Shown here one piece after another: positions 3,206 through 18,265 of a stretch of 20,000 nt of DNA; position 1 is the stretch's first letter; each line of letters opens with the position of its first letter. The stretch lies in the IMG/VR virus record IMGVR_UViG_3300037455_000492. One strand, 5' to 3'. The notes beneath the pieces are model-generated. The model was not told the DNA's origin. It searched no databases and saw only the letters and a list, made by a program, of their open reading frames with translations. The position numbers and the translations under genes were made by a program. Source of the DNA: an uncultured virus (IMG/VR IMGVR_UViG_3300037455_000492) (taxonomy: Duplodnaviria; Heunggongvirae; Uroviricota; Caudoviricetes).

Positions 3206-3536
3206 AGAAGTTGTGCAGAATGTGAAGGAATGGATGGTGACTATATTCATCGTGCTGTTCCTTGTCGTGGGGTTCGCCCTTTCGGTTTTCACGAAAGAGT
3301 ACAAGGCTACTCGGAAAACAAACAAATTGGAAGTCGGCGACAGATTCAAGGTGGAATTCGTTTCCGATAACCCCTATGAAGACCACATCATTTTCGGCGG
3401 AACGATAACCGCGAAGCACGGGAACTACATCCAATATGTGAACGAGAAAGGCGACACCGTCTCAACGAACATTCGTGATGCATACCGTTTTCCAAAAATG
3501 TTCACAGTCACAGTTTACAAAAACAAAGAGAAATGA
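3192..3536 (+). CDS. single-TM hypothetical protein with SH3-like soluble part
   Basis: WMVTIFIVLFLVVGFALSVF TM segment, then LEVGDRFKV...GTITAKHGNYIQY. Confidence 0.7.
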   Translation: MTENKEVVQNVKEWMVTIFIVLFLVVGFALSVFTKEYKATRKTNKLEVGDRFKVEFVSDNPYEDHIIFGGTITAKHGNYIQYVNEKGDTVSTNIRDAYRFPKMFTVTVYKNKEK

Positions 3537-4192
3537 GCAAGACAATAATCACAGTAAGAAGAAAAAGTGACGGCAAGATTCTGAAGGATGTAATCAACGA
3601 TTCCTGCCAAGTACACAACATCTATGACGGAGATGAACTCGTTGAATCCAACAAGGATTACACAATCGGCTATGTCGAGGACGGAGGATTTCTCGATTGG
3701 TCTGACTACGAGGAAGTCTATGACTGCGATGAAACCGATGAGCAAAGAGAGGAATCCAACAAACTGCTCGACAACTTGGATAAATTGTCAAGGTACAACA
3801 CGAACCTTCTGATTGCCGACTTGTGCGCCCGCCTGCCGTACAATGTGGTCTGCCATATCTCGCAGCACGTGCAGGGCGGTGACTTGGAGCGTGACGACAT
3901 ACTTCAAAAAATCGAAAAAGACGGGACTTGCGAATTCTTGGAGACCGTAGGTTTTGAATACGGATGGTTCTTTGCCGAAACGGAAGTGCGCCCGTACCTG
4001 CGCCGTATGAACACTATGACAACGCAGGAAGGTTTTGAATTCAACGGGCTGCGCAACGAACACGCTAATTTCGATTTCCAAGTTACATCGCATTTGTTGT
4101 ACGATTGGCTCAACAAAAAGCATTTCGACTACAGAGGACTTATCGACAGAGGTCTTGCAATAGAAGTCACTGACGAAAACAACCCGTATTAA
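3533..4192 (+). CDS. RLPY/LRPM/HFDY paralog family copy 1, with ~85-aa acidic N-terminal extension
   Basis: LLIADLCARLPYNV...RPYLRRMNTMT...DWLNKKHFDYRGLIDRGLAIE; ATGA overlap with the upstream gene. Confidence 0.9.
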   Translation: MSKTIITVRRKSDGKILKDVINDSCQVHNIYDGDELVESNKDYTIGYVEDGGFLDWSDYEEVYDCDETDEQREESNKLLDNLDKLSRYNTNLLIADLCARLPYNVVCHISQHVQGGDLERDDILQKIEKDGTCEFLETVGFEYGWFFAETEVRPYLRRMNTMTTQEGFEFNGLRNEHANFDFQVTSHLLYDWLNKKHFDYRGLIDRGLAIEVTDENNPY

Positions 4193-4195
4193 GAA

Positions 4196-4378
4196 ATGAA
4201 ACAATTAATCACAAAGGAAGAATACATCGAGTCGGGCGAAAATGGAATACGTTTCGTGAAACTCACGCCGAAGCAGAAAAAGGCAATAAACAAAAGATTG
4301 GTCGGGGTCAGACAGCGTGTCATCGATAACAGCATAAAAGCACGCGAAGAGGCTTCGAAAATCCACATAAACCGATAG
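4196..4378 (+). CDS. small basic hypothetical protein
   Basis: 60-aa ORF filling the gap between flanking genes. Confidence 0.65.
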   Translation: MKQLITKEEYIESGENGIRFVKLTPKQKKAINKRLVGVRQRVIDNSIKAREEASKIHINR

Positions 4379-4380
4379 TT

Positions 4381-4926
4381 ATGGAAATCGAAGAAATCAA
4401 CAGATTGTTTGAAACCTCGCAGCAGTACGAGGAATTCAAGACAACTAACGGCAAGCAACTCCGAATCGGCGACTATGTTCGTGTGAACAAAATCGCCGAG
4501 CGCAAGTATATCCACCAAGGGATGTACAAAATCGGATTCAGTTTCATAGGCGGACTCCGCTTTGAATTGGTGGGCATCTACAAAGAAGAACACAAAGTAG
4601 AGCCGAACAACAAATACAAATACAAATTGGAGTGCGAATACAACCAATGGCTCGGCAGCACTTCGTTCAACAGCCTGCAATTCTATAAAGAAAAAGAGCA
4701 GCAGGTTTGGTATATTGACGGCGAGGTGTCCGATGTATTCAAAATCGAAAACCCGCGTGACGAGATAAAGAAAATCACCTTGCTTTGGCACGTCCACCAA
4801 AATTTTGTCAAGGAGATTGACAAAATAACCAACAGAGACAGAACCGACCAAAACGACCCGATTAACTTCGAGTACGAGGCAATTGAAAAATACATTCACG
4901 AGAATTTGGACAAACTTAATTTTTGA
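4381..4926 (+). CDS. hypothetical protein
   Basis: 181 aa; contains NGKQLRIGDYVRV, a KOW/YopX-like N-terminal motif. Confidence 0.8.
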   Translation: MEIEEINRLFETSQQYEEFKTTNGKQLRIGDYVRVNKIAERKYIHQGMYKIGFSFIGGLRFELVGIYKEEHKVEPNNKYKYKLECEYNQWLGSTSFNSLQFYKEKEQQVWYIDGEVSDVFKIENPRDEIKKITLLWHVHQNFVKEIDKITNRDRTDQNDPINFEYEAIEKYIHENLDKLNF

Positions 4927-4930
4927 TTTT

Positions 4931-5383
4931 ATGAAAAAGGAACAAAAAGAACTGCTGTTGAACACCTTGCTTCGCGGAGTGCAGCACGGGTTGAACGTGA
5001 TGCGTGGCGACACCATATATGACTTATATATGGTCGGCGACCAAAAAGCCGTTGTCGTAAAGACGCTTATGAGCAACTTGGAAACATTCCCCATCACGGA
5101 ACTCAAACCAATTATGCGCCCGATTTCCGATATGAAGCCCGATGAGGTGAAACGGTTATACGATATACTTTCCATAGATATGGACAACAACGATTGGCTG
5201 AAAGTGAACGACCTCGGAGTTATGCGCCTTTACAGTGAGCAGGGAAAGGAATACTGCGACATCGCCAAGTCTATGGATTATCTCGATTCAATCCACGTTG
5301 ACTACCGTGGTTTAATCAAAAGCGGAATCGCTATCGACATAACGAAAAACAAACAAATCAAATTGGTATGGAAGTCACTATAA
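4931..5383 (+). CDS. paralog family copy 2 (divergent)
   Basis: ELLLNTLLRGVQHG...KPIMRPISDMKPDE...DYLDSIHVDYRGLIKSGIAID. Confidence 0.85.
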   Translation: MKKEQKELLLNTLLRGVQHGLNVMRGDTIYDLYMVGDQKAVVVKTLMSNLETFPITELKPIMRPISDMKPDEVKRLYDILSIDMDNNDWLKVNDLGVMRLYSEQGKEYCDIAKSMDYLDSIHVDYRGLIKSGIAIDITKNKQIKLVWKSL

Positions 5384-5580
5384 CCAAAAAACTGTTTTTG
5401 ACAGTTGACATAGACATCCCCGATGACGAAATCACGCAGGAACGCCTTTCGGAAGAAATAAAGAAAGTCATTGAAAAGCACGATGACATAGAAGATTGGG
5501 ACACTACTGATTGGACGGGCAAAGAGCGTTACGAGGCATACGAAACATACGGCGGCACTGAACTTGAATTGAATTTTTGA
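5368..5580 (+). CDS. small acidic hypothetical protein
   Basis: 70 aa, 21 D/E by hand count; overlaps the previous gene by 16 nt. Confidence 0.7.
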   Translation: MEVTITKKLFLTVDIDIPDDEITQERLSEEIKKVIEKHDDIEDWDTTDWTGKERYEAYETYGGTELELNF

Positions 5581-5581
5581 T

Positions 5582-5908
5582 ATGGAAATAGATTGCAAAG
5601 AGGAAAAACAGATTGCCGAGGCAATCGTTGCCGCACGGAAGATGCAGGAATTTCTGTGGGGTGAGTACAACGGTCAGTGGAACATCGAGGAATGGCGGCG
5701 TATGTTCAGAAAGCGCATACAGAAGATTGACGACATTGACCCCGCCAACCCGCACGCCAAGGTTGAGATGCGGAAACGCCTCGTCCAAAACGCCGCTCTT
5801 TCAATCGCGCTGCTCCGAATAATTGACGAGGAGGGCATTCCGACAAAGGACTGCGACATACCGAGCAACCTGCCGCAATACAGCCAACCCTTAACACACA
5901 AGATATGA
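5582..5908 (+). CDS. possible all-alpha NTP-pyrophosphatase (MazG-like) fold protein lacking the acidic motif
   Basis: ARKMQEFLWG...W...KRLVQNAALSIALL parallels the ERxRQxxKWG...W...EE.GE...ELVQVAAVAVA pattern of small phage MazG-like proteins. Confidence 0.45.
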   Translation: MEIDCKEEKQIAEAIVAARKMQEFLWGEYNGQWNIEEWRRMFRKRIQKIDDIDPANPHAKVEMRKRLVQNAALSIALLRIIDEEGIPTKDCDIPSNLPQYSQPLTHKI

Positions 5909-6165
5909 CAAAGGAAGAAATATTTGACATCAACGGCAAGAATCCGAAAGTCGGCGACAGAATCGCCTTGGCTGTCGGTTGGGGGACGAACAACGCATAC
6001 CTCAACATCTGCACAATCAAAGAGATTGTCGAACACCCGAAAACCGTTGAGGTGAAACTAACGACCGAACTGACGGGTCTATACAACAGACTGACTGACA
6101 TTCGATATGAATGGAAGCCCGTCATCAAATTCCCTATGGAGCATTGCAAATTCATTATATTATGA
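5905..6165 (+). CDS. small SH3/KOW-like hypothetical protein
   Basis: DINGKNPKVGDRIA N-terminal motif; ATGA coupling at both ends. Confidence 0.7.
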   Translation: MTKEEIFDINGKNPKVGDRIALAVGWGTNNAYLNICTIKEIVEHPKTVEVKLTTELTGLYNRLTDIRYEWKPVIKFPMEHCKFIIL

Positions 6166-6479: not shown

Positions 6480-6481
6480 GT

Positions 6482-6805
6482 ATGGTAAGAAAGGCAATCA
6501 TAACAGACGGCAACTATGTCAAAATGGCGGTTGACTGCTACAACCTTGACGATGACGGCACATTCGGACACATCGGAAAGATGTACAAATTTGAGAACGT
6601 CAAGGCTACCATCAAGCAGGACTGCTATGACGAGGCTGACCTCCACTATTTCAGAAAGAACCCGAAAAAATTGGAGAAGGGAACGGAAGTGACAATCAAT
6701 GTATATTGGATTAACTTCTACGGCTCTTATTACAGAATCACACACGAGGGTAAGACATACGACATCAAACGGGACAACGTATTGTTCAACATTAAAAAGA
6801 ACTGA
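6482..6805 (+). CDS. hypothetical protein
   Basis: 107-aa ORF, tightly coupled to neighbours. Confidence 0.75.
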   Translation: MVRKAIITDGNYVKMAVDCYNLDDDGTFGHIGKMYKFENVKATIKQDCYDEADLHYFRKNPKKLEKGTEVTINVYWINFYGSYYRITHEGKTYDIKRDNVLFNIKKN

Positions 6806-6806
6806 T

Positions 6807-7241
6807 ATGACAGTAGAGGAAAAGAAACTTTTGGTGGTTGACCTGCTCGCGAGAATGCCATACGGTGTGTATGTGGAACACGAGAGCAGCGGTTTTGTGG
6901 GCGTGGCGCACAACATATCCGTATATCCGAAATACGGTGGCGAGGACGACACCATAACCGACTATGTATGCACAATCGACTTTTTCGGAGACCTCGGATG
7001 GCTTCCGATAGAAAACTTCAGACCGATGCTTCGACCTATGTCGAGTATGAGCGATGAAGAGAAAATGAAATACGTCACACTCACGCACTACAACACTGAC
7101 GAAAACGGAAACCCGTTCAGAGAACTCACATTGGAAGCCTTGGATTGGCTCAACGCCAATCACTTCGATTACCGTGGGCTTATCGAAAAAGGTCTTGCAA
7201 CAGTGAACGGACTGTACGAGCCGCTTGCAACGGAAAAATAA
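6807..7241 (+). CDS. paralog family copy 3
   Basis: LLVVDLLARMPYGV...RPMLRPMSSMSDEE...DWLNANHFDYRGLIEKGLA; ATG at 6807. Confidence 0.9.
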   Translation: MTVEEKKLLVVDLLARMPYGVYVEHESSGFVGVAHNISVYPKYGGEDDTITDYVCTIDFFGDLGWLPIENFRPMLRPMSSMSDEEKMKYVTLTHYNTDENGNPFRELTLEALDWLNANHFDYRGLIEKGLATVNGLYEPLATEK

Positions 7242-7267
7242 TCACCAACATCAAACAAACACATATT

Positions 7268-7741
7268 ATGACAAACGAGGAAAAGGAACTTCTGCTAAAA
7301 GACTTGTTCGCAAGAATGCCATACGGAGTGGTTGTGCGGATATTGCCAAGCAATGAAGAGGAGACACTCTATTCGGCAAGACTGAATGGAGGTAAATGGC
7401 TGTTTAACGACTGCTACTACCTTGAAGAGATAAAGCCCTGCCTGCGCAGAACGAGGAATATGACTGACAAAGAATTGGCTGACGCGACAAAATATATGTT
7501 CAACACTGACAAAGTGGTGTACACATCAAACGGCAATCAAGGTATGGGGTTTTATGGCGAGATGCCCAACGGACACAAACTTCGGCTTGACGAAATTATG
7601 TTCAAACTCGGATGCTGCGGCATAAAGAACACGGATTGGTTAAATATCCATCACTTCGACTACCGCGACCTCATCAACAAAGGGCTTGCCTTGGAGGTGG
7701 ATGCCAAATTTTACGCAGAGCCAACGGCTGACGTTCAATAG
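7268..7741 (+). CDS. paralog family copy 4
   Basis: LLLKDLFARMPYGV...KPCLRRTRNMTDKE...DWLNIHHFDYRDLINKGLALE; ATG at 7268. Confidence 0.9.
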   Translation: MTNEEKELLLKDLFARMPYGVVVRILPSNEEETLYSARLNGGKWLFNDCYYLEEIKPCLRRTRNMTDKELADATKYMFNTDKVVYTSNGNQGMGFYGEMPNGHKLRLDEIMFKLGCCGIKNTDWLNIHHFDYRDLINKGLALEVDAKFYAEPTADVQ

Positions 7742-7771
7742 CCGTATACCCTAAATATACGATTGGATAAT

Positions 7772-8254
7772 ATGGAAAACAAAAAAGACATAAGCAAGAT
7801 AGTGTTGGCGCATCGTAAAAAAGGAAGCGATTTCGCCAATGGATTTCAGATTTACAAGCAAACCGACATACGCGGTGATGAAAAGGTGTTCAAATTCGGT
7901 GACATCTATGTTTTGCTCGAATCCGAATTCGACTTGATATTCAGCCTCGGCGATTTGAAACTTGATTGGGTGGATTTCAAGCAGCCGTATGTCCCTACGT
8001 TTTGGGAAAAGGTGCGCAAAAAACTTTTCAACAAACCGTATCAAGAGTTCGTTGTGAACCGCCCGCGCAACGGAAGCATTGTAATCGTTGACTACGGCAA
8101 TTGGTACGAAACCGTTGAATTCAGTTACAGCAAAAACCACACCCCTATGTGGGTCACAGCCCTATACACGGGCATCAACCCGACACGATGGTCATACATA
8201 CCGAATTGGATATTCGAGTCAGCAGCCATACTAAAATCAAAACCAAATATATAA
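7772..8254 (+). CDS. hypothetical protein, possible C-terminal DUF551-like domain
   Basis: WVDFK...RPRNGSIVIV...W...PTRWSYIP resembles the W..P..V.V..W..THWxPLP pattern. Confidence 0.6.
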   Translation: MENKKDISKIVLAHRKKGSDFANGFQIYKQTDIRGDEKVFKFGDIYVLLESEFDLIFSLGDLKLDWVDFKQPYVPTFWEKVRKKLFNKPYQEFVVNRPRNGSIVIVDYGNWYETVEFSYSKNHTPMWVTALYTGINPTRWSYIPNWIFESAAILKSKPNI

Positions 8255-8261
8255 CGCATAT

Positions 8262-9146
8262 ATGAACAAGAAAGACAAAGACCTTCTTTTGAGCGACTTG
8301 TGCGGGCGGCTTCCATACGAGGTTATTCTTGAAGTGTCATTTGACACGGAGGATTCCAATGAATCGCAGAACCCGTATCCTATGGTGAGTCTGTCCGCTG
8401 ACGGTGTTGTCATCGAAACGGACTATCACAGATACAACATTCCGATAGAGAAAGTCAAACCGTACCTGCGCCCTATGGAGGATATGACGGGGGATGAAAT
8501 GAAATATGTGAATGAAACGTTCTTCAAGAAATCCGACCACTTTATGATTGACGATTGCGGGGAGATGTTCGTTTCGGCGCAACCGTTTGAAAGCGTTTAC
8601 ACACTCGCGCTCAAATATCAAGCGGAATATTTCGATTGGTTGAACTCCCGCCACTTCGACTACCGCAGGCTTATTGAAAAAGGTCTTGCACTGAAGGCAG
8701 ACGACACTATGTACGATTCGTTCACGAAAAAACTCACGAGAGGGGAGCGCGAAGCCATATACAAGGAGATTTGCAGGAGAATGCCATACGGGGTGATTGT
8801 TAGGGACGAGAACAATTACAACCCAATCAAAAAGACATACGACTACGAGGCGTATCCGAGTATGTTGACGAACAACGATTTGGAAGGGTTGAGACCTTAT
8901 CTCCGCAGCATTGACAAAATAACGCCGAAAGAGAAAGAATACATAAAGAAACACGGCAACATACTTCCCGATTTCGCCAACTCAAAAATGTTGTTCGCGC
9001 AGCAGGTGGCTAAACTCACCAAGTATCTCGACTCGCATATGTTTGACTATGACAATATGATTGCGAAGGGTCTCGCCTTGGAAGCCCCAGAGGGTTTGTA
9101 TGATGTCGAAAATTTCGGAAAGGAGGTGAATGTATGCCCGTTATAG
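8262..9146 (+). CDS. paralog family copy 5: tandem two-domain protein
   Basis: Two complete block sets: DLCGRLPY/KPYLRPM/DWLNSRHFDY..KGLA, then EICRRMPYG/RPYLRSI/YLDSHMFDY..KGLALEAPEGLY. Confidence 0.9.
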   Translation: MNKKDKDLLLSDLCGRLPYEVILEVSFDTEDSNESQNPYPMVSLSADGVVIETDYHRYNIPIEKVKPYLRPMEDMTGDEMKYVNETFFKKSDHFMIDDCGEMFVSAQPFESVYTLALKYQAEYFDWLNSRHFDYRRLIEKGLALKADDTMYDSFTKKLTRGEREAIYKEICRRMPYGVIVRDENNYNPIKKTYDYEAYPSMLTNNDLEGLRPYLRSIDKITPKEKEYIKKHGNILPDFANSKMLFAQQVAKLTKYLDSHMFDYDNMIAKGLALEAPEGLYDVENFGKEVNVCPL

Positions 9147-9823
9147 CACCGATAGTTTATCCGTATTTCGGTGAGGGCTTTGGCACGCTGTTCAAAATAA
9201 ACGAGCAGAAATCCAAGGACGAATCCCGAAAATGGCTGATGTCATTAAAGACAATCATCCCCGAAAGGTTTGACGAGTTGGGTTACAACTCCATCACCAT
9301 AAACACGCTTGACTACGGCGTGTCCTGCTTCGCTTCAAGCAGGAAATACCCGAATCTCTACACGACATTCACCATATCCGAAGAAAAAACAACGCCTATG
9401 GTCGAATGGAAATACTACATAAGTGAAAACCGTTGGTGTACGTTTGAGGTCAGTATGCTCCAAATGATGAGCGTTCTCGAACTTACGGCGAAGCGTTCCT
9501 CCAAAAAGCATTGGTGGAGTCGCAGAGAGGAACACTCCATTATGACAAACGATATGTTCAACGAGGCGATTGAACAATTGTTCCAAGCGAACCGAATTTA
9601 TCCAAAGCCATACAAATTCCACTATGGATACGGCGGTCTTGATATATACCTTGACAAAAACAAGGACATATTCGGCGGCAAGGACGAAGGCTACTTTTTC
9701 GAGAACATAGGGGGCAGGATAGTCAAGAATCTGATAACCCTCGACAATACACAACAGAAACTTCTGTTTATGTTCAACAACGACATCGTTGGCGACCTTC
9801 CCAAAAAATTCTCACAACAATGA
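9134..9823 (+). CDS. hypothetical protein
   Basis: 229-aa ORF overlapping both neighbours. Confidence 0.8.
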   Translation: MPVIAPIVYPYFGEGFGTLFKINEQKSKDESRKWLMSLKTIIPERFDELGYNSITINTLDYGVSCFASSRKYPNLYTTFTISEEKTTPMVEWKYYISENRWCTFEVSMLQMMSVLELTAKRSSKKHWWSRREEHSIMTNDMFNEAIEQLFQANRIYPKPYKFHYGYGGLDIYLDKNKDIFGGKDEGYFFENIGGRIVKNLITLDNTQQKLLFMFNNDIVGDLPKKFSQQ

Positions 9824-10323
9824 CAAACGAAGAAAGAAAACTTTTGATAAAAGACACGCTCGGTCGTATGCCATACTCTCTCTACATAGAGAACAAGGGC
9901 GACAAGTCAAGGAGCATACTCCACACAATATCCGTTTACCCTATCTTTGATGGGAACAAGATAGGCGACTGCTCTTGTGACGTGGAACTGAAAGACGGCA
10001 GGCGTGTCGGCATAGACGAATGTATGCCTTTGCTACGACCAATCGGCACTATGACGGATGACGAACTCAAGCATTTGAGATGGCTGTGTCATTTCGGTTA
10101 TCCGTCTGACGATTACGACAAATACGACCATCGTGGCGTTGAGGTGCTGACATTCATATACGATTCCGATAAGACACCGCACTATATGTCAAAAATGGAA
10201 TATGATTCCGATGACTTGGACGAACTCACGGATTACTTGAACTCCCGTTACATCGACTACCGTGGTCTTATCGAAAAAGGGCTTGCGGTTGACGCAGGCG
10301 ACATATACGCAGGACAACTTTAA
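9820..10323 (+). CDS. paralog family copy 6
   Basis: LLIKDTLGRMPYS...PLLRPIGTMTDDE...DYLNSRYIDYRGLIEKGLAVD. Confidence 0.9.
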   Translation: MTNEERKLLIKDTLGRMPYSLYIENKGDKSRSILHTISVYPIFDGNKIGDCSCDVELKDGRRVGIDECMPLLRPIGTMTDDELKHLRWLCHFGYPSDDYDKYDHRGVEVLTFIYDSDKTPHYMSKMEYDSDDLDELTDYLNSRYIDYRGLIEKGLAVDAGDIYAGQL

Positions 10324-10344
10324 TACAATTTAATACAAACAAAT

Positions 10345-10836
10345 ATGGAACAACACGAAAGAACAATATTGGCGGCGTTGTGCGAGGGTCTTCCCCACAA
10401 TCTTATATGCGATTTCTACGATGACGAGGAACACGTCCATCACGAGGCTGTGCTAATCACGGTGCATAAAGTTATGTTCAAGGATTGGAAACGCGAGGTC
10501 ATTGACATCAGCGGGCAGTCCACCATAATAGGCGACAACACGAGGTATGTGTACAGCCTGCACAATGTCAAGCCATACCTGCGACCTATGTCCTCTATGA
10601 CAAATGTGGAAAAACTTGAATTTGAATCAATCACAAACAAGGCGAACAGCGACAAAATCAAAAACGTCCTGCATTGGGACTTCATCGGGGAAACGCAATA
10701 CTTCGAACTCAATTGGTTCGATGTCGCCGAAATCGTGGAGTGGCTTAACGCGCATCATTTCGACTACAAGAAACTTATTCAAAAAGGTCTCGCTTATGCT
10801 GCGACCGAAAATATGTATAACATCAAAAACCAATAA
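10345..10836 (+). CDS. paralog family copy 7
   Basis: ILAALCEGLPHN...KPYLRPMSSMTNVE...EWLNAHHFDYKKLIQKGLA. Confidence 0.9.
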   Translation: MEQHERTILAALCEGLPHNLICDFYDDEEHVHHEAVLITVHKVMFKDWKREVIDISGQSTIIGDNTRYVYSLHNVKPYLRPMSSMTNVEKLEFESITNKANSDKIKNVLHWDFIGETQYFELNWFDVAEIVEWLNAHHFDYKKLIQKGLAYAATENMYNIKNQ

Positions 10837-10838: not shown

Positions 10839-11315
10839 ATGGAAGAACACGTTTACAGAATGTACAGCATTGTACTGAAACAACTTGACGGAATACACAG
10901 CGGAGTACAGACGGCGCACGGCGTTTGCGAGTATATCCGCAAGCATTGGGGTGACAAAGACCTTCAGCAATGGATGGATACAGACAAAACCCTTATCATC
11001 CTCAACGGCGGCTCTACGAGCAATATGGAGTACATAATGAAAGAGTTTGAGCGGGCGAATGTCAAATTCGAAACATTCGAGGAGGAAGACCTCGGCAACC
11101 TCACCACCTCAATCTGCGTTCTCGCCGATGAACGGATTTGGGATAGGGCTTTCATTTCAATGTATGACTATCTGAACAACCGTATCGCGCAATACCGCAA
11201 CGAACCTCTGCCAAACGATTTTACCGATAAAGTCGAAACCGAGTACTATGAATACATCGGCGGAGAGGAAAACGCTATGAAAAAGTTCATCCTTAATGAG
11301 TTGAAAACCAAATAA
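10839..11315 (+). CDS. Pth2-like peptidyl-tRNA hydrolase
   Basis: RMYSIVLKQL-GIHSGVQTAHG, W...KTLIILNGG and FEEEDLGNLTTSICV match the phage PTH2-fold pattern (QxxH helix; FxEPD..N..TAI). Confidence 0.7.
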   Translation: MEEHVYRMYSIVLKQLDGIHSGVQTAHGVCEYIRKHWGDKDLQQWMDTDKTLIILNGGSTSNMEYIMKEFERANVKFETFEEEDLGNLTTSICVLADERIWDRAFISMYDYLNNRIAQYRNEPLPNDFTDKVETEYYEYIGGEENAMKKFILNELKTK

Positions 11316-11325: not shown

Positions 11326-11796
11326 ATGAAAAAGAGCGATAAGAAAACAATACTGAAAACTCTGTGTGAAAGACTCCCGTATGGTGTTAAAGTGCTTCAC
11401 CAAAGTTGGAACTATGAGTGGGATGACGAGATGTCATACGTTCTCACAGTGACGGGCATAGACACCAAGGGCGAGATTATCCAATACGATTTCAACGGCG
11501 AGAAAGAAACACACTCATACGGAGACCCGCTTGACATAGACCTGCCAATCCTGCGACCGATGGCAACTATGACGGATGAGGAGCGCGATGAGGTTACACA
11601 AATCTGCTATGACATTGACTTAACCAAAGAAGGCATTTCGATAATCAAGCAGAACCTCCCGTACCAAAAAGTTTCCGCCGTTATGGATTGGCTCAACGCC
11701 CGCCACTTCGACTATGACGACCTCATCGGCAGGAAACTCGCCGTGGAAGACTTCAGTGGCGTTTATAAAAAAGACTATGTTTCAAAACCTTGTTAG
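11326..11796 (+). CDS. paralog family copy 8
   Basis: ILKTLCERLPYGV...PILRPMATMTDEE...DWLNARHFDYDDLIGRKLAVE. Confidence 0.9.
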   Translation: MKKSDKKTILKTLCERLPYGVKVLHQSWNYEWDDEMSYVLTVTGIDTKGEIIQYDFNGEKETHSYGDPLDIDLPILRPMATMTDEERDEVTQICYDIDLTKEGISIIKQNLPYQKVSAVMDWLNARHFDYDDLIGRKLAVEDFSGVYKKDYVSKPC

Positions 11797-11798
11797 CG

Positions 11799-12264: not shown

Positions 12265-12287
12265 GCACGGGATACATAATAATCCGA

Positions 12288-12299
12288 TTTTTATTATAT
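12288..12299 (+). promoter_or_regulatory. putative early promoter motif TTTTTATTATAT (copy 2)
   Basis: ccgaTTTTTATTATAT in the intergenic gap upstream of ATG 12324. Confidence 0.6.
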
Positions 12300-12323
12300 A
12301 AATTAAAAGCAAATATATTAGAT

Positions 12324-12722
12324 ATGACAGAGCAGAACATTGAAAGAGTATTCGCCGAGATATGCGCAAGACTGCCATACGGCGTGAAAATCACAACCGA
12401 AATTTGGGATGAGGATACATTGACCGAATCGGAAGCGACATTGAAGGTCTATTCAGTAAACGCTGACAGATACGTCTATGTGAACACGGACGAGGAAACC
12501 ATCCAATTGTACGCCGACAACGTGACAATGCTTCTCCGACCTATGGACGATATGACGGAAAAGGAGAAAGCGGAATACATCGGATTGTTCGATGGTATGC
12601 CGTTCTGCCCCGAACCGCAGAAACAGATTCAATGGCTGACCGCCCACCACTTCGACTACAACGGTCTAATCGAGGACGGTCTTGCTGAAAAAGCACCTAT
12701 TGGCGTATATCACGTGGAGTAG
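12324..12722 (+). CDS. paralog family copy 9
   Basis: FAEICARLPYGV...MLLRPMDDMTEKE...QWLTAHHFDYNGLIEDGLAE. Confidence 0.9.
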   Translation: MTEQNIERVFAEICARLPYGVKITTEIWDEDTLTESEATLKVYSVNADRYVYVNTDEETIQLYADNVTMLLRPMDDMTEKEKAEYIGLFDGMPFCPEPQKQIQWLTAHHFDYNGLIEDGLAEKAPIGVYHVE

Positions 12723-12723
12723 T

Positions 12724-13206
12724 ATGAGAGAGCGAGCGGTATTCACGGGTTCATTCGACCCGTTCACAGAAGCGCACCTTGATGTGTGCAAAACAGCAAG
12801 CAAGTTTTTCGACATCACAATCCTAATCTGCTGCAACCCCAAAAAAGGAAACGGTATGTTCCATTGGTTGGACAGAGAGGAAATGATTAAGTCGATACTG
12901 CGCGAACTTGACGGAAACGCAACCGTTGATATTTGTATGGGTTCGGTCGCCGCCTATTGCAAGGATAAAGACATCAAATACGCAATTCGCGGAATCCGTT
13001 ACAGCAACGCTGCGGAGGAAATCGAACTCGCGGGCATATACAACGAAGACGGGGTGAAAACTATCCTGCTGCCCGTGTATGACCCGAAGCACATAAACAT
13101 ATCGTCAACCCGTGTACGGGAATATATCAGATGCGGTCTGAATTGGACGCGCCTTGTTCCAGAACAGATTATACCTATAATGCACAAACACCTTAATTTG
13201 GAATGA
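12724..13206 (+). CDS. coaD: phosphopantetheine adenylyltransferase (CoaD) homolog
   Basis: RAVFTGSFDPFTEAHLD, NPKK..MF...R, IRGIR, ISSTRVRE and LVP are collinear with bacterial CoaD (YPGTFDPITNGH, IRGLR, ISSSLVKE); 160 aa. Confidence 0.85.
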   Translation: MRERAVFTGSFDPFTEAHLDVCKTASKFFDITILICCNPKKGNGMFHWLDREEMIKSILRELDGNATVDICMGSVAAYCKDKDIKYAIRGIRYSNAAEEIELAGIYNEDGVKTILLPVYDPKHINISSTRVREYIRCGLNWTRLVPEQIIPIMHKHLNLE

Positions 13207-13207
13207 T

Positions 13208-13633
13208 ATGACACAAAACGAAGAACTTTTACTGAAAGACTTGACGGCAAAACTTCCATACGGCGTGAAGGTCGAGATAGAGGGGTTGGACGGCATACAC
13301 ACCGTGGACGGAATAAATATAAAAACCGACCGAAACGGTGTCAAGCAAGCCGAGGTTAAGGTTGACACATACAACGTCTATTACCCCATAATCGATGTGC
13401 ATCCGTACCTGCGCGATTTCGAGGATATGACGGAAGCGGAGTTTGACGAAAACGAGAAATACGTGTTCCCGATTTTCGATATGGCTTCAAGCGAATCCAT
13501 ACCTGCGGGAACATTGGTTGACAATGCGCACAAGGTCACGGAATTCTACGACTCGCATCTGTTTGACACAAGAAGCCTGCTGAAACTGAAACTCGCAAAA
13601 AAAGCGGAGGAAGGATTCTATGATTTCAAATGA
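13208..13633 (+). CDS. paralog family copy 10
   Basis: LLLKDLTAKLPYGV...HPYLRDFEDMTEAE...FYDSHLFDTRSLLKLKLA. Confidence 0.9.
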   Translation: MTQNEELLLKDLTAKLPYGVKVEIEGLDGIHTVDGINIKTDRNGVKQAEVKVDTYNVYYPIIDVHPYLRDFEDMTEAEFDENEKYVFPIFDMASSESIPAGTLVDNAHKVTEFYDSHLFDTRSLLKLKLAKKAEEGFYDFK

Positions 13634-13634
13634 T

Positions 13635-13940
13635 ATGAACGAAAAGGAAGCACTTGAGAAATTCATATCCGACCAATTTGACGGAATCGGGTATTTGAAC
13701 AAAAGCGTTGACTATGACGAGGAAGGCAAGATAATCAATGTCAGTTACCGACTGATGGGTGACATCATAATCTCGCTCACAAAACCATACGAAACGCTTG
13801 ACGACAACTTTGTTGCGTTCAACGTGTACCAAGACAAAACTCTGCTTATATCGGAAATAGCGGATTGCAAACTCATTCTCACCTATCTTCACAACGTTAA
13901 CGAGAAAGTCATTATTTTGAAAAAAAGACAAAGCGTATGA
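13635..13940 (+). CDS. hypothetical protein
   Basis: ATG at 13635, 101 aa, ATGA-coupled to the next gene. Confidence 0.7.
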   Translation: MNEKEALEKFISDQFDGIGYLNKSVDYDEEGKIINVSYRLMGDIIISLTKPYETLDDNFVAFNVYQDKTLLISEIADCKLILTYLHNVNEKVIILKKRQSV

Positions 13941-14515
13941 ACCAAATATCTTATATATTGGCTGCGATAATGATTATAGCCTCCATCATATTCATCAGCG
14001 TTCAATGCGTCCGTTTTGACAGACGAAAAGCAAAGCGTGATGAGCGCGACAAAGAAACCGAATCCGAGGAAACGCCAGAACCGACATTATACGATGAATG
14101 GGACGAGGACAAAAAACTTCTGTATGCCGATATGTGCAGCAGAATACCATACGGGACGAAATGCTCAATTCTGTTCAAAGAAAGAACCGAGGGCGGAATT
14201 GACGGATACATAACCGACTTGGACGTTTTCGTCATCGAGGAATTCGAGGATATGGAGGCGTATGATTTGAAGTCGATAAAACCTATCCTACGAAGATTTA
14301 CCGATATGACGGAGGATGAACATACGGAATTGTTTAATACATATCACAATGTTGAAATGGAAGAATGCGAAAAAAGTGGAGACTATCCAAAAGCGTCTTG
14401 CTTGGGGGATATGGCAAAATATGATTGGTTAAACGCCCACCACTTCGACTACCGAGGTCTGATTGACAAGGGGCTTGCAGAACCCGTGACCGAGAAACAC
14501 AATCCGTACATATAA
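13937..14515 (+). CDS. paralog family copy 11, with N-terminal transmembrane anchor
   Basis: ISYILAAIMIIASIIFISV TM segment plus charged linker, then LLYADMCSRIPYG...KPILRRFTDMTEDE...DWLNAHHFDYRGLIDKGLAE. Confidence 0.9.
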   Translation: MNQISYILAAIMIIASIIFISVQCVRFDRRKAKRDERDKETESEETPEPTLYDEWDEDKKLLYADMCSRIPYGTKCSILFKERTEGGIDGYITDLDVFVIEEFEDMEAYDLKSIKPILRRFTDMTEDEHTELFNTYHNVEMEECEKSGDYPKASCLGDMAKYDWLNAHHFDYRGLIDKGLAEPVTEKHNPYI

Positions 14516-14518
14516 AAG

Positions 14519-14549
14519 AAAACGCGGTTGCAATGCAGCCGCGTTTTTT
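14519..14549. terminator. bidirectional intrinsic terminator
   Basis: AAAACGCGGTTGC-AAT-GCAGCCGCGTTTTTT hairpin between convergent genes, with an A-tract before and a T-tract after. Confidence 0.85.
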
Positions 14550-14634
14550 GTTTTCGATTAGTTAAAAGGACTTCTTATGTGTACCATAGTTTTGATTTTT
14601 TATTTTTGTATATCTTTGATTGCATTCGTATAAT

Positions 14635-15031
14635 TTATTTTCTATTCCTATACCACGCAGGTGGGTTGTTTTGTAATGGACAATAGTCAAACATTTCGTC
14701 CATATCCCAATATTTCACATTTGAAACATCCCATTTTGAAATGTCTCCATTGAATCTGGAACGGTAAAACATACGAAACATAGTAGTTACATTGGATACA
14801 TTCCATTTAGATATGTCACCATTAAATTCGGAATTTTGAAACATACCAAACATTTTAGTCACATTAGAAACATCCCATTGTGATATATCACCATTAAAAT
14901 CAGATTTTAGGATAATAATTATAATGTTTTGACTTATAATTACTTTTATCTATTGTTGGATTGTTATTGTCATTTATATTATGTCTTTGTGAAGTTAATG
15001 ACATTTCATCAATTTTCATTATATGTGCCAT
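14635..15031 (-). pseudogene. DUF285/BspA-type repeat protein, frameshifted
   Basis: ATG 15031 gives MAHIMKIDEM...NYYPKI* (TGA 14902-14900); three FNGDISxWxVSNV repeats lie in another frame starting about 14904 and end at TAA 14635. Confidence 0.75.
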
Positions 15032-15050
15032 AATCCGATTTATATTACAA

Positions 15051-15060
15051 TATTTATACG
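15051..15060 (-). promoter_or_regulatory. T4-type late promoter CGTATAAATA
   Basis: Contains TATAAATA (T4 gp55 consensus); 19 nt upstream of ATG 15031; identical box and spacing at 19396-19405. Confidence 0.75.
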
Positions 15061-15084
15061 AATTTGTTTTGTACGTTTCGGATT

Positions 15085-15096
15085 TTTTTATTATAT
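15085..15096 (+). promoter_or_regulatory. putative early promoter motif TTTTTATTATAT (copy 3), divergent from the late promoter
   Basis: Located where + strand transcription must restart after the 14519 terminator and the - strand insert. Confidence 0.65.
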
Positions 15097-15113
15097 TAAG
15101 TAAAAAGACTTTT

Positions 15114-15215
15114 ATGATAAAGCACGATTCAATATTCAACCTAATACCGAGCGGCTATTGCATAGCGGGCGGTATGTGTGTGCCGATTGGCTTAACGAAA
15201 AGCAAGACGCTATGA
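15114..15215 (+). CDS. possible 33-aa ORF or remnant
   Basis: ATG 17 nt after the promoter motif; MIKHDSIFNLIPSGYCIAGGMCVPIGLTKSKTL; ATGA-coupled to 15212. Confidence 0.4.
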   Translation: MIKHDSIFNLIPSGYCIAGGMCVPIGLTKSKTL

Positions 15216-15643
15216 GAAGGGGAGACATCAAACTTGTTATGGAAGATTTGTGTTCGCGTGTATTCTACAACCCGCGTTTTCATTATTTCCCGATGTTCGC
15301 TGACGGTGAGGAATACGAATATGACGACACACTTTCCTTGGTTGATTCTGTTGAGGAGAAGATTGAGGGTTGCGACACAACAGAATTGTTAAGTGTCGAG
15401 TGCATTATGCTGTATTTACGACCTATGTCAAGTATGACGGAAAAAGAAAGGGCTGAATACGAGAATAACTCAAAAAACGAATTTGGTAATACCATCGGAA
15501 CTTATATGTCGCCCAAAAACAAGTTTGTGTTTGAGCAGTTGGCGAAAGCGAAAGACATCGAATGGCTCAACGCCCACCACTTCGACTACAGAGGTCTCAT
15601 TGAAAAGGGTCTTGCTTTGGAAGCACCCGAAGATATGTACTAA
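15212..15643 (+). CDS. paralog family copy 12
   Basis: LVMEDLCSRVFYN...LYLRPMSSMTEKE...EWLNAHHFDYRGLIEKGLALEAPEDMY. Confidence 0.9.
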   Translation: MRRGDIKLVMEDLCSRVFYNPRFHYFPMFADGEEYEYDDTLSLVDSVEEKIEGCDTTELLSVECIMLYLRPMSSMTEKERAEYENNSKNEFGNTIGTYMSPKNKFVFEQLAKAKDIEWLNAHHFDYRGLIEKGLALEAPEDMY

Positions 15644-15655
15644 TAAACTATAGAT

Positions 15656-15862
15656 ATGGAAGGATTTATCATAATATACCAAAGAGGCGAGCAGTACGAC
15701 TGCGCAGGAAACTGTGTGCCGAAAACCGTTGCAAAGATGTTCCCGCCAGAAACCACGCTCAAAGAGGTTTCAAAATGGGTGATTGAAACCGCAGGTGTTT
15801 TCAATAACATACCAAACATCATAGACAACCCGAAAATAATCGGAATAGGAAACGATAATTGA
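15656..15862 (+). CDS. hypothetical protein
   Basis: 68-aa ORF in the coupled series. Confidence 0.65.
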   Translation: MEGFIIIYQRGEQYDCAGNCVPKTVAKMFPPETTLKEVSKWVIETAGVFNNIPNIIDNPKIIGIGNDN

Positions 15863-15863
15863 T

Positions 15864-16028
15864 ATGGGAAAGGTAAAAGACAAAAACGGCAAAAATAAAC
15901 AGCACAGCGTTCCCGTGAGAATCGAGGTGGTCGGTAAGAACGGCAAAACCATTTCTGTAAATGAATACGATTCACAACTCAAACCGCAGGGAAGCGGCTT
16001 CGTTATAGTACTTGAACCAAAAGAATAA
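15864..16028 (+). CDS. small hypothetical protein (54 aa, not in ORF track)
   Basis: MGKVKDKNGKNKQHSVPVRIEVVGKNGKTISVNEYDSQLKPQGSGFVIVLEPKE fills the gap between 15862 and 16031. Confidence 0.65.
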   Translation: MGKVKDKNGKNKQHSVPVRIEVVGKNGKTISVNEYDSQLKPQGSGFVIVLEPKE

Positions 16029-16030
16029 GT

Positions 16031-16402
16031 ATGAAAAAAGTTATGACAAAAGAAGAAAAAATCGAATTGCGGCGTGAAGTCTGCGCGAGGATGCTCTACG
16101 GATTGAAGGCACTCGCCACAAAAAGCAACCAAGTCGTAAGCATACTTCGCGGCGGCTACTACGATGACGAAAATTATTATTTCATACCGACCATAATCGC
16201 CGTGGCGTTTGAAATCGATGACTTCAAAATGTATCTGCGACCTATGACAAGTATGACGAAAGAGGAATTTGACTTCGTTGACACAGAATTCAAAAACCTC
16301 AAAATACACGAGAAAATGGATTGGTTCTACGAACACCACTTTGACGTGCGCGGTCTGATTGAAAAGGGGCTTGCACTTGAAGCCCCCGAAGGTATGTATT
16401 AA
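16031..16402 (+). CDS. paralog family copy 13
   Basis: EVCARMLYGL...KMYLRPMTSMTKEE...DWFYEHHFDVRGLIEKGLALEAPEGMY. Confidence 0.9.
   Translation: MKKVMTKEEKIELRREVCARMLYGLKALATKSNQVVSILRGGYYDDENYYFIPTIIAVAFEIDDFKMYLRPMTSMTKEEFDFVDTEFKNLKIHEKMDWFYEHHFDVRGLIEKGLALEAPEGMY
16350..16398 (+). repeat. 49-bp exact direct repeat, copy A
   Basis: GCGGTCTGATTGAAAAGGGGCTTGCACTTGAAGCCCCCGAAGGTATGTA, identical at 17214-17262. Confidence 0.9.
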
Positions 16403-16421
16403 ACCCTAAAAAAATATAATT

Positions 16422-16856
16422 ATGGACATTAACGAACACGAATTATTGGTAAGCGAACTTTCCAAATTGTTGCCTTACAACATTATATGTGAAACCGATG
16501 ACGGGAAAGGCACGTTGGTTTCAGTCGAGCCTACTTCAGATTTGGCTTACGTGGAATTTCGTTCAAACGTAGATGCCGAGGAATACGAAATATGGGACGG
16601 CACATTAAAACCGTACTTGCGCCCGCTGTCAAGTATGACAAAAGAGGAGGAAACGGAATATAAAAACCTTTTCGAGTATGAGGAGCGCGAATACAACCAA
16701 GGATGCAATTTCTATGACGAATGGAAAATTGACATCGATGACCAATGCAGGCTGATGGAAGTCGCCGATTGGCTCTACAAACATCACTTTGACTGCCGTG
16801 GTCTTATCGGAAAAGGATTGGCAATCGAAGCCCCAGAGAATATGTACACGAAATAA
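16422..16856 (+). CDS. paralog family copy 14
   Basis: LLVSELSKLLPYN...KPYLRPLSSMTKEE...DWLYKHHFDCRGLIGKGLAIEAPENMY. Confidence 0.9.
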   Translation: MDINEHELLVSELSKLLPYNIICETDDGKGTLVSVEPTSDLAYVEFRSNVDAEEYEIWDGTLKPYLRPLSSMTKEEETEYKNLFEYEEREYNQGCNFYDEWKIDIDDQCRLMEVADWLYKHHFDCRGLIGKGLAIEAPENMYTK

Positions 16857-16864
16857 CGGGTAAT

Positions 16865-17287
16865 ATGGAAAAGGAACAAGAAACACTGCTTGTGAAAGTT
16901 CTGTGCGGAGGAATCCCGCACAAGTGGAACATTGAAATCACCGACACCAATGAAACGGAGGAACTGTATTCCGTTGAGGAAGTCGGTCAATGGGTTGTCA
17001 ACGGCAGAATCCCGACAGAGAACGTGAAGCCGTATCTGCGACCGCTGTCGTCTATGACGGAGGATGAACTCAACGAAATCAAAAGGCGTTGGCTGTTCAC
17101 GCAGAACTGTAATGATGACGGGAACATATCCGAACTGTTCGACAGAGGTCGCCTTGAACTGTGTTCGGTTTTTATTATGCTCGATTGGTTCAACGCCCAC
17201 CGCTTTGACTACTGCGGTCTGATTGAAAAGGGGCTTGCACTTGAAGCCCCCGAAGGTATGTACGGAAAGGGGGAACACAATGCGTGA
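16865..17287 (+). CDS. paralog family copy 15
   Basis: LLVKVLCGGIPH...KPYLRPLSSMTEDE...DWFNAHRFDYCGLIEKGLALEAPEGMY. Confidence 0.9.
   Translation: MEKEQETLLVKVLCGGIPHKWNIEITDTNETEELYSVEEVGQWVVNGRIPTENVKPYLRPLSSMTEDELNEIKRRWLFTQNCNDDGNISELFDRGRLELCSVFIMLDWFNAHRFDYCGLIEKGLALEAPEGMYGKGEHNA
17214..17262 (+). repeat. 49-bp exact direct repeat, copy B
   Basis: Identical to 16350-16398. Confidence 0.9.
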
Positions 17288-17840
17288 TACCGAATACAAA
17301 GGCGTAATCACCAAGGAATTGTTCCAACTGTATGTCACGCGGTTTTTCGCAGGAATGCCATACGGGATAAAGGCGAACCTCGGTGGTGAAACGCAACTCA
17401 CCGTCACGGTGTACGGCATTTCAATCAAGGAAAATCTCAACAAAAAGGAATGCCTCAAATACGAACACGATTCTCATCTTACCCTATGCGAAGCATTCGC
17501 CTTGCTCTACAATGATATTACGGACATTAGGACATTCGGCAAACTGATATGCGACAAGAATGACTATGTTTACTCACTTATAGATTACCACAGACGTTCC
17601 GACACTGATGAATGGGTGAACGATGTTGTCAAACCGTATCTCCGACCGATTGCAAGTATGACAGAGGCGGAGAAAGCGGAATTCGACAGCCTGCCGAAAG
17701 GATACACGGCAGACATCAGCGGAGATAGGATTATGATACCGATGTACGTGGATTGGCTCAATGCCCGCCATTTCGATTACAGCGGTCTGATAGAAAAAGG
17801 ACTTGCATTGGAAGCACCAATCGATTTATACGAATTATGA
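17280..17840 (+). CDS. paralog family copy 16 (long first variable segment)
   Basis: FFAGMPYGI...~88 aa...KPYLRPIASMTEAE...DWLNARHFDYSGLIEKGLALEAP; ATG at 17280. Confidence 0.9.
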   Translation: MRDTEYKGVITKELFQLYVTRFFAGMPYGIKANLGGETQLTVTVYGISIKENLNKKECLKYEHDSHLTLCEAFALLYNDITDIRTFGKLICDKNDYVYSLIDYHRRSDTDEWVNDVVKPYLRPIASMTEAEKAEFDSLPKGYTADISGDRIMIPMYVDWLNARHFDYSGLIEKGLALEAPIDLYEL

Positions 17841-18265
17841 GAAAGGAAAAAATAGAACTGCTGAAGCAGGATTTGTACGCGAGAATACCTTACGGGGTAA
17901 AGGCGAAAGCCATATACATCGAGCCTTGGACAACAGCGGGTCGCGATGTCGAAGGCATCGTGCAAAGCGCATACCTTGACAGCGTTGTGATTAACCGTTG
18001 CCATTGCGAATTGAGAAACACCGTTCTGTTTCTGCGCCCGATGTCCGACATCACGAAAGAAGAGAAAGAATATGTTTCCAAGGAATTGGGATTCGACATA
18101 GACACGGACAACGTGATATGGGGCGGCATTGACACGGTTCTCGGAACTCCTCTCCCATTTAATTTGGACGATATGACAAAACTGTTCTCTTGGCTCAACA
18201 AAAACCAATTCGACTACAGAGGACTTATAGAAAAAGGTTTGGCAATAGCATTTAAAAAGGAATAA
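17837..18265 (+). CDS. paralog family copy 17
   Basis: LLKQDLYARIPYGV...LFLRPMSDITKEE...WLNKNQFDYRGLIEKGLAI; ATG at 17837. Confidence 0.9.
   Translation: MRKEKIELLKQDLYARIPYGVKAKAIYIEPWTTAGRDVEGIVQSAYLDSVVINRCHCELRNTVLFLRPMSDITKEEKEYVSKELGFDIDTDNVIWGGIDTVLGTPLPFNLDDMTKLFSWLNKNQFDYRGLIEKGLAIAFKKE

Follow-up and report, generated by a model that had tools for sequence, protein, structure and literature searches.

The stretch analysed here, 20,000 nucleotides of an uncultured virus of the Caudoviricetes (IMG/VR record IMGVR_UViG_3300037455_000492) and hereafter called the window, belongs to a large uncultured phage of the gut or rumen and contains a multigene family that is real and protein-coding. 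Seventeen + strand open reading frames (ORFs) between positions 3533 and 18265 contain all three conserved sequence blocks of the family. One of them, ORF 8262-9146, holds two domains with a boundary at 8724, so that the 17 genes yield 18 domains of one family. A profile built from these 18 domains and run against all six frames of the window recovered exactly the same 18, the minus strand and the other frames being empty. This count is circular for the window, the profile having been built from the domains it recovers; non-circular support comes from two unrelated viral loci (L001 and L002), in each of which the same profile found 10 full copies. The domains of the window match the profile with E-values of 1e-33 to 1e-45, the reading frames of all 17 genes are intact, and the family genes together take up ~8.5 kb, or 42-43% of the window. 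A sequence-only reading of this DNA had counted 17 paralogs and 18 domains in ~42% of the window, standing singly or in runs among other small genes. ORF and profile analysis confirmed the count, the extent and the arrangement: besides single copies there are runs of two (6807-7741), two (9820-10836) and five (16031-18265).

Organisation of the array

The window is made up almost entirely of small + strand genes, with convergent minus-strand genes beyond ~18.95 kb. Two terminator-like hairpins split these genes, which are mostly ORFans, into two long co-directional operons. Of the relatives found, the closest is G003, a viral contig of 413 kb rated 100% complete by CheckV and syntenic with the window. 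The family genes and the hairpins are given below, with protein length in amino acids (aa) and profile E-value (E); phrog_10841 is an entry of PHROGs v4 discussed further on, and V1 and V2 are the two variable segments of the domain.

3533..4192, + strand: family gene 1, 219 aa, domain from 3758, E 2.9e-35
4931..5383, + strand: family gene 2, 150 aa, E 9.4e-37; phrog_10841 at E 6.6e-6
6807..7241, + strand: family gene 3, 144 aa from ATG 6807, E 1.5e-39
7268..7741, + strand: family gene 4, 157 aa, E 1.1e-39; syntenic G003 ortholog
8262..9146, + strand: family gene 5, 294 aa, tandem of 8262-8723 (E 1.3e-45) and 8724-9146 (E 2.6e-32)
9820..10323, + strand: family gene 6, 167 aa, E 2e-36; longest V2 (52 aa); G003 ortholog, 49%
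10345..10836, + strand: family gene 7, 163 aa, E 9e-42
11326..11796, + strand: family gene 8, 156 aa, E 2.9e-39
12324..12722, + strand: family gene 9, 132 aa, E 2.6e-39
13208..13633, + strand: family gene 10, 141 aa, E 4.1e-37
13937..14515, + strand: family gene 11, 192 aa, transmembrane helix at about aa 5-23, charged linker, domain from 14090, E 4.6e-38
14517..14549, + strand: strong terminator-like hairpin, 15 pairs and a T run; closes the first long operon
15212..15643, + strand: family gene 12, 143 aa, E 7.9e-40; opens the second operon
16031..16402, + strand: family gene 13, 123 aa, shortest copy, E 3.3e-37; the member modelled
16422..16856, + strand: family gene 14, 144 aa, E 1.9e-43; phrog_10841 at E 1.9e-9
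16865..17287, + strand: family gene 15, 140 aa, E 1.4e-42
17280..17840, + strand: family gene 16, 186 aa, E 2.9e-37; longest V1 (87 aa); 8-nucleotide overlap with gene 15
17837..18265, + strand: family gene 17, 142 aa, E 1.6e-33; 4-nucleotide overlap with gene 16
18916..18945, bidirectional: terminator-like hairpin; closes the second operon, convergent minus-strand genes lying beyond

A typical member is ~125-190 aa long. Gene 1 is preceded by an N-terminal extension of 75 aa without family similarity, and its syntenic ortholog in G003 is 53% identical. Gene 2 is the most divergent copy, with 19-21% identity to some paralogs. The start of gene 3 is most likely the ATG at 6807, 2 bases past the upstream stop at 6805, rather than position 6699, the longer ORF from 6699 overlapping the upstream gene. 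The tandem gene 5 has a database homolog (P0001) that is 72% identical, and the best match of gene 12 lies in a second array of G003 (44%).

Domain architecture and predicted fold

Along the domain the order is block 1, V1, block 2, V2 and block 3, and the consensus of the 18 domains for the three blocks is M..E...LL..DLC.R.PYGV / KPYLRPM..MT..E..E / DWLN.HHFDYRGLIEKGLA.EA....Y. Mean pairwise identity over 153 pairs is 34, 46 and 55% in blocks 1, 2 and 3, as against 13% in V1 and 11% in V2; V1 is 32-87 aa long and V2 14-52 aa. These figures bear out the architecture initially proposed, namely three conserved blocks and two dissimilar segments of variable length.

An AlphaFold2 model of the 123-aa product of gene 13, made from the 18-domain alignment, has a mean predicted local distance difference test score (pLDDT) of 87.5 and a predicted template modelling score (pTM) of 0.80. 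It contains a helix at residues 7-23, strands at 25-29, 34-43, 49-53 and 65-70 and, in its C-terminal part, helices at 77-85 and 92-102 and a strand at 115-117. The predicted fold is thus an N-terminal helix, a 4-5 stranded Sm/SH3-like beta-barrel and conserved C-terminal helices. Block 1 corresponds in the model to helix 1 running into strand 1, block 2 to the last barrel strand and helix 2, and block 3 to helix 3 and the C-terminal strand. The blocks are its confident parts, and the suggestion that they fold into a common core agrees with this prediction. V1 would supply the middle strands of the barrel, where pLDDT falls to 57-60, and V2 the loop between helices 2 and 3. For gene 14, the ESM Atlas has its own model with a pTM of 0.74; a model of the tandem gene 5 (pLDDT 66, pTM 0.48, from a 7-sequence alignment) is too poor for domain packing.

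Searches with these models yielded little. Foldseek against the PDB returned no row at E<=1e-3, and its top match, CapW at E 0.08, is in the chance range by the calibration of the tool. In the viral structure library BFVD a single row reached E<=1e-3 and a second lay at 3.9e-3; each is a phage protein that is uncharacterised. The structure prediction and Foldseek search that the sequence-only reading had proposed as a check therefore produced one well-modelled copy and no convincing match to a solved structure. CapW belongs, with BrxR, DriD and PafBC, to the WYL proteins, whose WYL domain is an Sm-like ligand-sensing barrel. Our family differs in having no WYL match in Pfam (0/17) and neither the winged helix-turn-helix (wHTH) nor the WCX partner domain of WYL proteins; moreover, the WYL domains of the matched PDB entries bind single-stranded DNA, according to the entry titles, whereas the family proteins are acidic.

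The model of the family protein has an N-terminal helix followed by a small barrel, as do Hfq and the Sm-like Rho inhibitor Rof (YaeO), with match scores in the noise range. Hfq forms hexamers and Sm proteins form heptamers. If the family proteins were Sm-like oligomers of this kind, the conserved platform would be an oligomerisation surface, and homo- or hetero-rings would act on RNA or serve as a scaffold specified by their composition. The family, however, lacks the Sm1/Sm2 and Hfq sequence signatures (Pfam 0/17) and differs from Hfq, Sm and Rof proteins in ~55 extra residues of conserved C-terminal helices. We consider a ring-forming role unlikely.

Sequence-profile searches of the PDB returned nothing below E 0.05. 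The only match there was a ryanodine receptor repeat domain, RyR3 4erv_A (E 0.16 for A1, 0.49 for A4), in an alignment that places block 2 on the signature stretch in each of the two RyR repeats. The family and the RyR domain (PF02026) have in common a short motif in block 2 and the helix that follows, the block order is collinear with the RyR consensus, and the RyR domain is likewise present in Bacteroidales and phage-like contigs. One Prevotella bin (G008) holds both a family locus (L091) and three canonical RyR genes, at 27.8, 49.0 and 51.6 kb of contig C191 (L106-L108). The family might then be a divergent RyR-type domain, with V1 and V2 as insertions and with the same function as that domain, a proposal that concerns ancestry more than function. 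Yet PF02026 (gathering score 27.4 bits) matched 0/17 proteins at E<=0.01, while a control genome and G008 did yield true members with this model. Aligned by hhalign with 9 Bacteroidales RyR domains, the family (128 sequences) reached a probability of 7.6% over 29 columns; removal of the V1 and V2 columns gave 9.6-14.5% over 20-31 columns (14.5% over 20), and global mode nothing. The listed structural matches include no RyR chain, which does not exclude one. PF02026 was not found in G003 or in G005, a further carrier contig described below, and the RyR profile drew a blank in the family loci. A whole-domain relationship was rejected on the Pfam and hhalign searches and the listed fold matches, the likeness amounting to one short motif, and a divergent RyR-type domain appears very unlikely.

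Family size, fusions and conserved residues

The family is large. A profile search of 1.84 billion representatives clustered at 50% identity found 9,377 of them at E<=1e-3, the best 150 of which are listed; at stricter cut-offs the same search retains 3,816 (E<=1e-10) and 231 (E<=1e-30). In a collection of 5.8 billion proteins there are at least 7,998 matches at E<=1e-5, that is 7,998 of the 8,000 candidates scored. Among the 120 matches listed from this collection, the only source name is 'hypothetical protein', and one has a Pfam domain, DUF6794, fused C-terminally.

The single named counterpart is phrog_10841, in the PHROGs v4 category 'unknown function', which matches 11 of the 17 window proteins with E-values of 2e-4 to 1.9e-9; the other six have no match to it at E<=1e-3. 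It represents the same family and also matches fused relatives, but its 163-position profile covers the window proteins only in partial stretches, and no function is attached to it. Pfam matched 0/17 proteins at E<=0.01, NCBIfam 0/18 domains, and the defence and counter-defence catalogue PADLOC-DB 0/18 domains. Neighbours in the ESM Atlas are unnamed viral clusters, none of its named clusters matching. Literature searches found nothing on the family or on phrog_10841, and a term search of PMC13037316 gave 0 occurrences of 'paralog', 'duplicat', 'multi-copy', 'gene famil' or 'copies'. The family is known only as an unnamed PHROGs entry, without a domain model; the view that it had no assigned function has held up against Pfam, NCBIfam, PADLOC and PHROGs.

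A single domain is present in 269 of the 279 retrieved proteins and a pair in the other 10. There are nineteen longer forms, mostly fusions to an unannotated region of 330-490 aa, which is N-terminal, recurrent and also found as a separate neighbouring gene. Rare fusions join the domain to DUF6794, GNAT or class II aldolase. No fused form provides a functional lead.

The three small-gene families most often seen together with this one are themselves unannotated: one of ~375 aa in 38/69 sources, and two of ~129 aa in 30/69 and 26/69. Window gene 1543-1956 (phrog_12005) is a member of one of the ~129-aa families, and the ~375-aa family is a recurrent fusion partner of the family domain (P0262-P0267, P0270).

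Across 128 sequences, conservation reaches at least 90% at R16, Y19, Y65, R67, T73, E76, N119, D124, Y125 and R126, in the numbering of the 16422 protein; D124 is invariant, and a His-His pair is common in block 3. Such residues may indicate a ligand binder or an enzyme, in which they would form a small-molecule pocket (for a nucleotide signal, for example) or a catalytic site; the proteins would then act as sponges or modifiers whose specificity or localisation is tuned by V1 and V2. The rare fusions to GNAT and class II aldolase, and that to DUF6794, point the same way. Several observations run counter to this reading. The family matches no enzyme or nucleotide-binding family, the His-His pair is not invariant, and the enzyme fusions are single metagenome gene calls that may be read-through artefacts. 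Nor is there a clear need for up to 45 sponges or enzymes with different barrels in one genome. A ligand-binding or catalytic role is, in our view, unlikely.

Carrier phages and host

Near-identical DNA occurs in sequencing runs recorded as bovine gut or gut metagenomes. Run X2 has exact contigs in 30/30 bins of the window, and run X3 covers 28/30 bins at ~2% divergence. Megablast of the window against GenBank phages found no DNA match. In one metagenome scan, the relatives among the matches listed are 32-53% identical. Between the window and G003, 15 pairs of non-family proteins are 40-82% identical over aligned positions (median 59%), 14 of the 15 falling within 44-82%.

Copies per genome were counted on viral contigs rated at least 90% complete:

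G003, 413 kb: 45 matches, 43 near full length
G004, 388 kb: 27 matches
G005, 353 kb, terminal repeats: 18 matches
G002, 361 kb: 16 matches
Other contigs: 373 kb, 7 matches; 335 kb, 7; 355 kb, 6; 345 kb, 6; 317 kb, 5
Complete 60-kb contig: 2 matches

Related jumbo phages thus have 5-45 matches each, a count that the sequence-only reading had proposed to make. In G003, 29 matches lie in the array syntenic with the window and 15 in the second array, on the opposite strand. Sixty-eight viral loci of ~20 kb have 1-20 copies each, and all copies within a locus are co-stranded. Copy number varies from 1 to 20 per locus and from 2 to 45 per contig, so that large arrays characterise certain lineages of jumbo phages; of these, the lineage of the window is the most expanded.

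The family is restricted to phages and is carried on uncultured phage contigs. A genome collection yielded only 20 loci, all in metagenome bins; 14 of these are in bins labelled Prevotella, Paludibacteraceae, Parabacteroides, Bacteroidaceae or Bacteroidales, and some of the 20 bins are single contigs of 286-410 kb that resemble binned phages. One of 50,697 GenBank phage records matches, through gp097 of Cellulophaga phage phi13:1 (32% identity, E 9e-5). This protein, annotated as hypothetical, is the only match in a cultured phage, and Cellulophaga is a member of the Bacteroidota. The bins and the Cellulophaga phage support the link to Bacteroidota phages made in the sequence-only reading, and point, if weakly, to a host that is probably a member of the Bacteroidales.

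Old subfamilies with a stable V1

The highest identity between any two paralogs of the window is 38.5%, and each of the 18 domains finds a higher-scoring copy in another phage than among the paralogs of the window. The copies are therefore old subfamilies, not recent duplicates.

Ten pairs were available for comparison with G003, seven of them syntenic and three best-hit partners (two of the three in the second array). Between orthologs, identity is 49% in block 1, 42% in V1, 51% in block 2, 26% in V2 and 62% in block 3; non-orthologous pairings give 32, 17, 45, 14 and 54%, respectively. V1 length differs by at most one residue in 8/10 ortholog pairs and is equal in six. In gene 16, whose V1 is the longest, the G003 ortholog also has a V1 of 87 aa, 60% identical. 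From these identities and lengths, V1 emerges as a constrained segment that defines the subfamily, and V2 as a loosely constrained loop. The segments had been described as hypervariable, interchangeable specificity loops. This description does not hold for segments under continuing diversification: V2 alone changes fast, and V1 is not hypervariable over time and is instead a stable signature of old subfamilies common to phages.

Syntenic family orthologs have a median identity of 45% over aligned positions, as against 59% for the 15 non-family neighbours. Array content also differs by many genes between the two phages, the comparison suggested at the outset showing 29 matches in the G003 array and 18 domains in the window. 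V2 and copy number turn over quickly.

Selection could be examined only at short distance, since dN/dS against G003 is precluded by saturation of synonymous sites at 35-53% protein identity. Against the ~2%-diverged X3 strain there are 293 differences, 40 of which are listed; 25 of these are single-nucleotide polymorphisms (SNPs) in family genes, 15 synonymous and 10 non-synonymous. Gene 10 has 8 synonymous and 7 non-synonymous SNPs among those listed. The 25 family-gene SNPs fit purifying selection, and the 40 listed differences are too few for a comparison of blocks with variable segments.

Transitions, in both directions, make up most of the differences between strains (A>G 52, G>A 59, C>T 44, T>C 37, A>C 15, A>T 8), the only DNA repeats in the window are the paralog blocks themselves, at 60-85% identity, and there is no reverse transcriptase among 30 neighbouring ORFs. 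On these three grounds a diversity-generating retroelement is excluded. Mobile genes of the homing-endonuclease type were considered and rejected, there being no nuclease domain and no family match of any kind (Pfam, NCBIfam, PADLOC).

The array could also be the product of selfish or near-neutral expansion, spread and maintained by recombination at the conserved DNA blocks of 40-100 nucleotides or as mobile cassettes, its genes having no role of their own towards the host. Copies are indeed interspersed and differ widely in number between related phages, block-level repeats occur across the window, and block 3 of gene 1 is a point where contigs from other strains break or diverge. What argues against it is the age and integrity of the copies: recent duplicates are missing and syntenic orthologs have been kept, V1 is conserved between orthologs, SNPs are mostly synonymous, and all frames are open. 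Pfam shows no nuclease, integrase or transposase domain. We hold such an expansion to be improbable.

These contigs, from X2, X3 and X13, depart from the window at 4100-4160 (loose ends in or close to block 3 of gene 1) and also at 8252, 8455-8477 and 16066; one continues into a different block-3-like coding sequence. They may reflect cassette exchange or recombination at conserved DNA blocks, or an assembly artefact at repeats.

Protein properties and genomic surroundings

All 17 proteins are acidic or near-neutral: their isoelectric points (pI) span 4.3-6.7 around a median of 4.75, and their net charge per 100 aa is -7. The neighbouring proteins have a median pI of 6.1. Of all segments V1 is the most acidic (-12 per 100 aa). 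No hydrophobic helix is found in 16/17 members. The remaining one, gene 11, has an N-terminal membrane anchor (hydropathy peak 2.69) followed by a positively charged stretch, and its G003 ortholog also begins with a hydrophobic helix.

Two RNA-library runs recorded as metatranscriptomic, X13 and X14, contain exact contigs on genes 1, 7, 9, 10, 11 and 12, for instance X14 on 10384-10617 (gene 7) and X13 on 12317-12660 (gene 9). As DNA carry-over is possible, these contigs are weak evidence of expression; conversely, the bins of the window left uncovered (8/30 in X13, 19/30 in X14) were not taken as silence. A scan for sigma-70-type promoters stayed at chance level (40 found, 39.6 expected), and the window contains no tRNA and no Rfam match.

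The neighbours of the family genes in the window are mostly ORFans. Two of those lying between copies are recognisable, a PTH2-like hydrolase (10839-11315; phrog_3668, E 1.8e-25) and a CoaD/NMNAT-like nucleotidyltransferase (12724-13206; TIGR01510, 83.6 bits, below cut-off). The arrays of G003 are flanked or interrupted by a CCA-adding enzyme, Thg1, Tpt1/KptA, RlaP and nucleoside deoxyribosyltransferases (L071, L073, L074), and their surroundings also include a helicase-methyltransferase, a DNA methylase, a resolvase and an FtsH-like AAA/M41 protease. We found no virion genes in the G003 array surroundings examined, and the array region is a non-structural, host-interaction part of that genome.

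These surroundings bear on the possibility that the family proteins are packaged in the virion, as internal or ejected proteins that enter the capsid by means of a conserved element and are injected together with the DNA. T4-type phages have plastic internal-protein loci, and phiKZ-type phages have inner-body paralogs. Many small acidic paralogs in a jumbo phage, with a conserved N-terminal block and a variable remainder, would suit such a role. However, conservation extends across the whole domain and is not that of a short targeting peptide, one member is membrane-anchored, and the arrays lie among non-structural genes, with no capsid, portal or prohead protease gene adjacent in the window and G003 stretches examined. 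Packaging seems to us clearly unlikely.

Some further observations concern the surroundings. The RNA and nucleotide enzymes interleaved with the arrays in the window and in G003 together resemble a tRNA-repair toolkit. The small protein encoded at 2253-2561 of the window has an ExoX-like domain at its C-terminus (PF20600, E 8e-10) and lacks an exonuclease domain. In the 700-bp gap between the operons (14516-15211), a short minus-strand ORF (14635-14910) contains 72-nucleotide tandem repeats (14715-14898) and encodes a DUF285-type repeat fragment, and locus L003 contains many matches to this stretch. A full DUF285 protein lies within the second G003 array (L074:10585-11223; PF03382, E 7e-42), and the short ORF looks like a DUF285 remnant between two operons.

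A tentative function

The reading that fits best, and one we advance tentatively, is that the family is a battery of proteins that bind or inhibit different host proteins in the cytoplasm. It fits because the proteins are acidic, soluble and small and combine a conserved platform with a stable, subfamily-specific barrel face, and because they evolve faster than their neighbours, are gained and lost as cassettes, are restricted to phages and lie in a context of RNA repair and DNA modification. The acidity, the long operons of small genes and the tRNA/RNA-repair and DNA-modification genes beside the G003 arrays are indirect support for a host-directed cytoplasmic role.

As binders, the proteins would act in the cytoplasm, with one member tethered to the membrane. 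The conserved helical platform would serve the fold and might also provide one shared contact, be it self-association or binding of a common partner, while the acidic barrel face formed by V1 would in each paralog recognise a different host protein. The likeliest targets would be basic, nucleic-acid-binding host proteins such as defence nucleases and transcription or translation factors, which binding would block or redirect during host takeover or counter-defence. A large phage would keep many subfamilies because each covers a different target or host variant.

Three points weigh against a battery of binders. The polar residues that hardly vary may belong to a ligand or catalytic site instead of a scaffold. 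V1 shows no excess of change in the SNP sample, contrary to what an active arms race in this segment predicts. Finally, 'early' timing is deduced solely from gene size and context.

A related but very improbable scheme is a library of substrate adaptors, in which the invariant platform would dock all paralogs on one hub and the V1 barrels would bring host proteins to it for destruction or sequestration. A candidate hub is the FtsH-like AAA+/M41 protease near the G003 array, or else a host machine, and one paralog is membrane-tethered. The FtsH-like gene (AAA and peptidase M41 domains) lies at L073:716-2941, ~10 kb downstream of the array. If adaptors they were, host takeover would be retargeted by gaining or losing cassettes.

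Conclusions

Multigene families are known in large viruses, among them the multigene families (MGF) of African swine fever virus (ASFV), the ankyrin/BTB proteins of poxviruses and the internal-protein loci of T4-type phages. The family described here follows the same pattern, diverged paralogs of a small domain in accessory arrays that are gained and lost between relatives; it differs in fold and sequence family, in its bacterial host, in its exceptional size and in its old subfamilies shared among phages, which are not recent duplications within one lineage.

It is among the largest protein families of gut and rumen phages without a domain model or function. In some jumbo phages no other gene is repeated as often, its matches numbering up to 45 in 413 kb. 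Since the domain combines a conserved platform, a stable barrel and a fast loop, its paralogs can be compared experimentally one against another. Should the family instead consist of ligand binders or form an Sm-like assembly, it would still be a new fold family that merits a Pfam entry and an experimental structure. To our knowledge, few phage-host interaction proteins are known for the Bacteroidales. If each paralog does bind a different host protein, the arrays would offer a ready catalogue of phage-made inhibitors for these bacteria, and the binder reading, if true, would contribute to an explanation of the role of the extra genes in jumbo phages.

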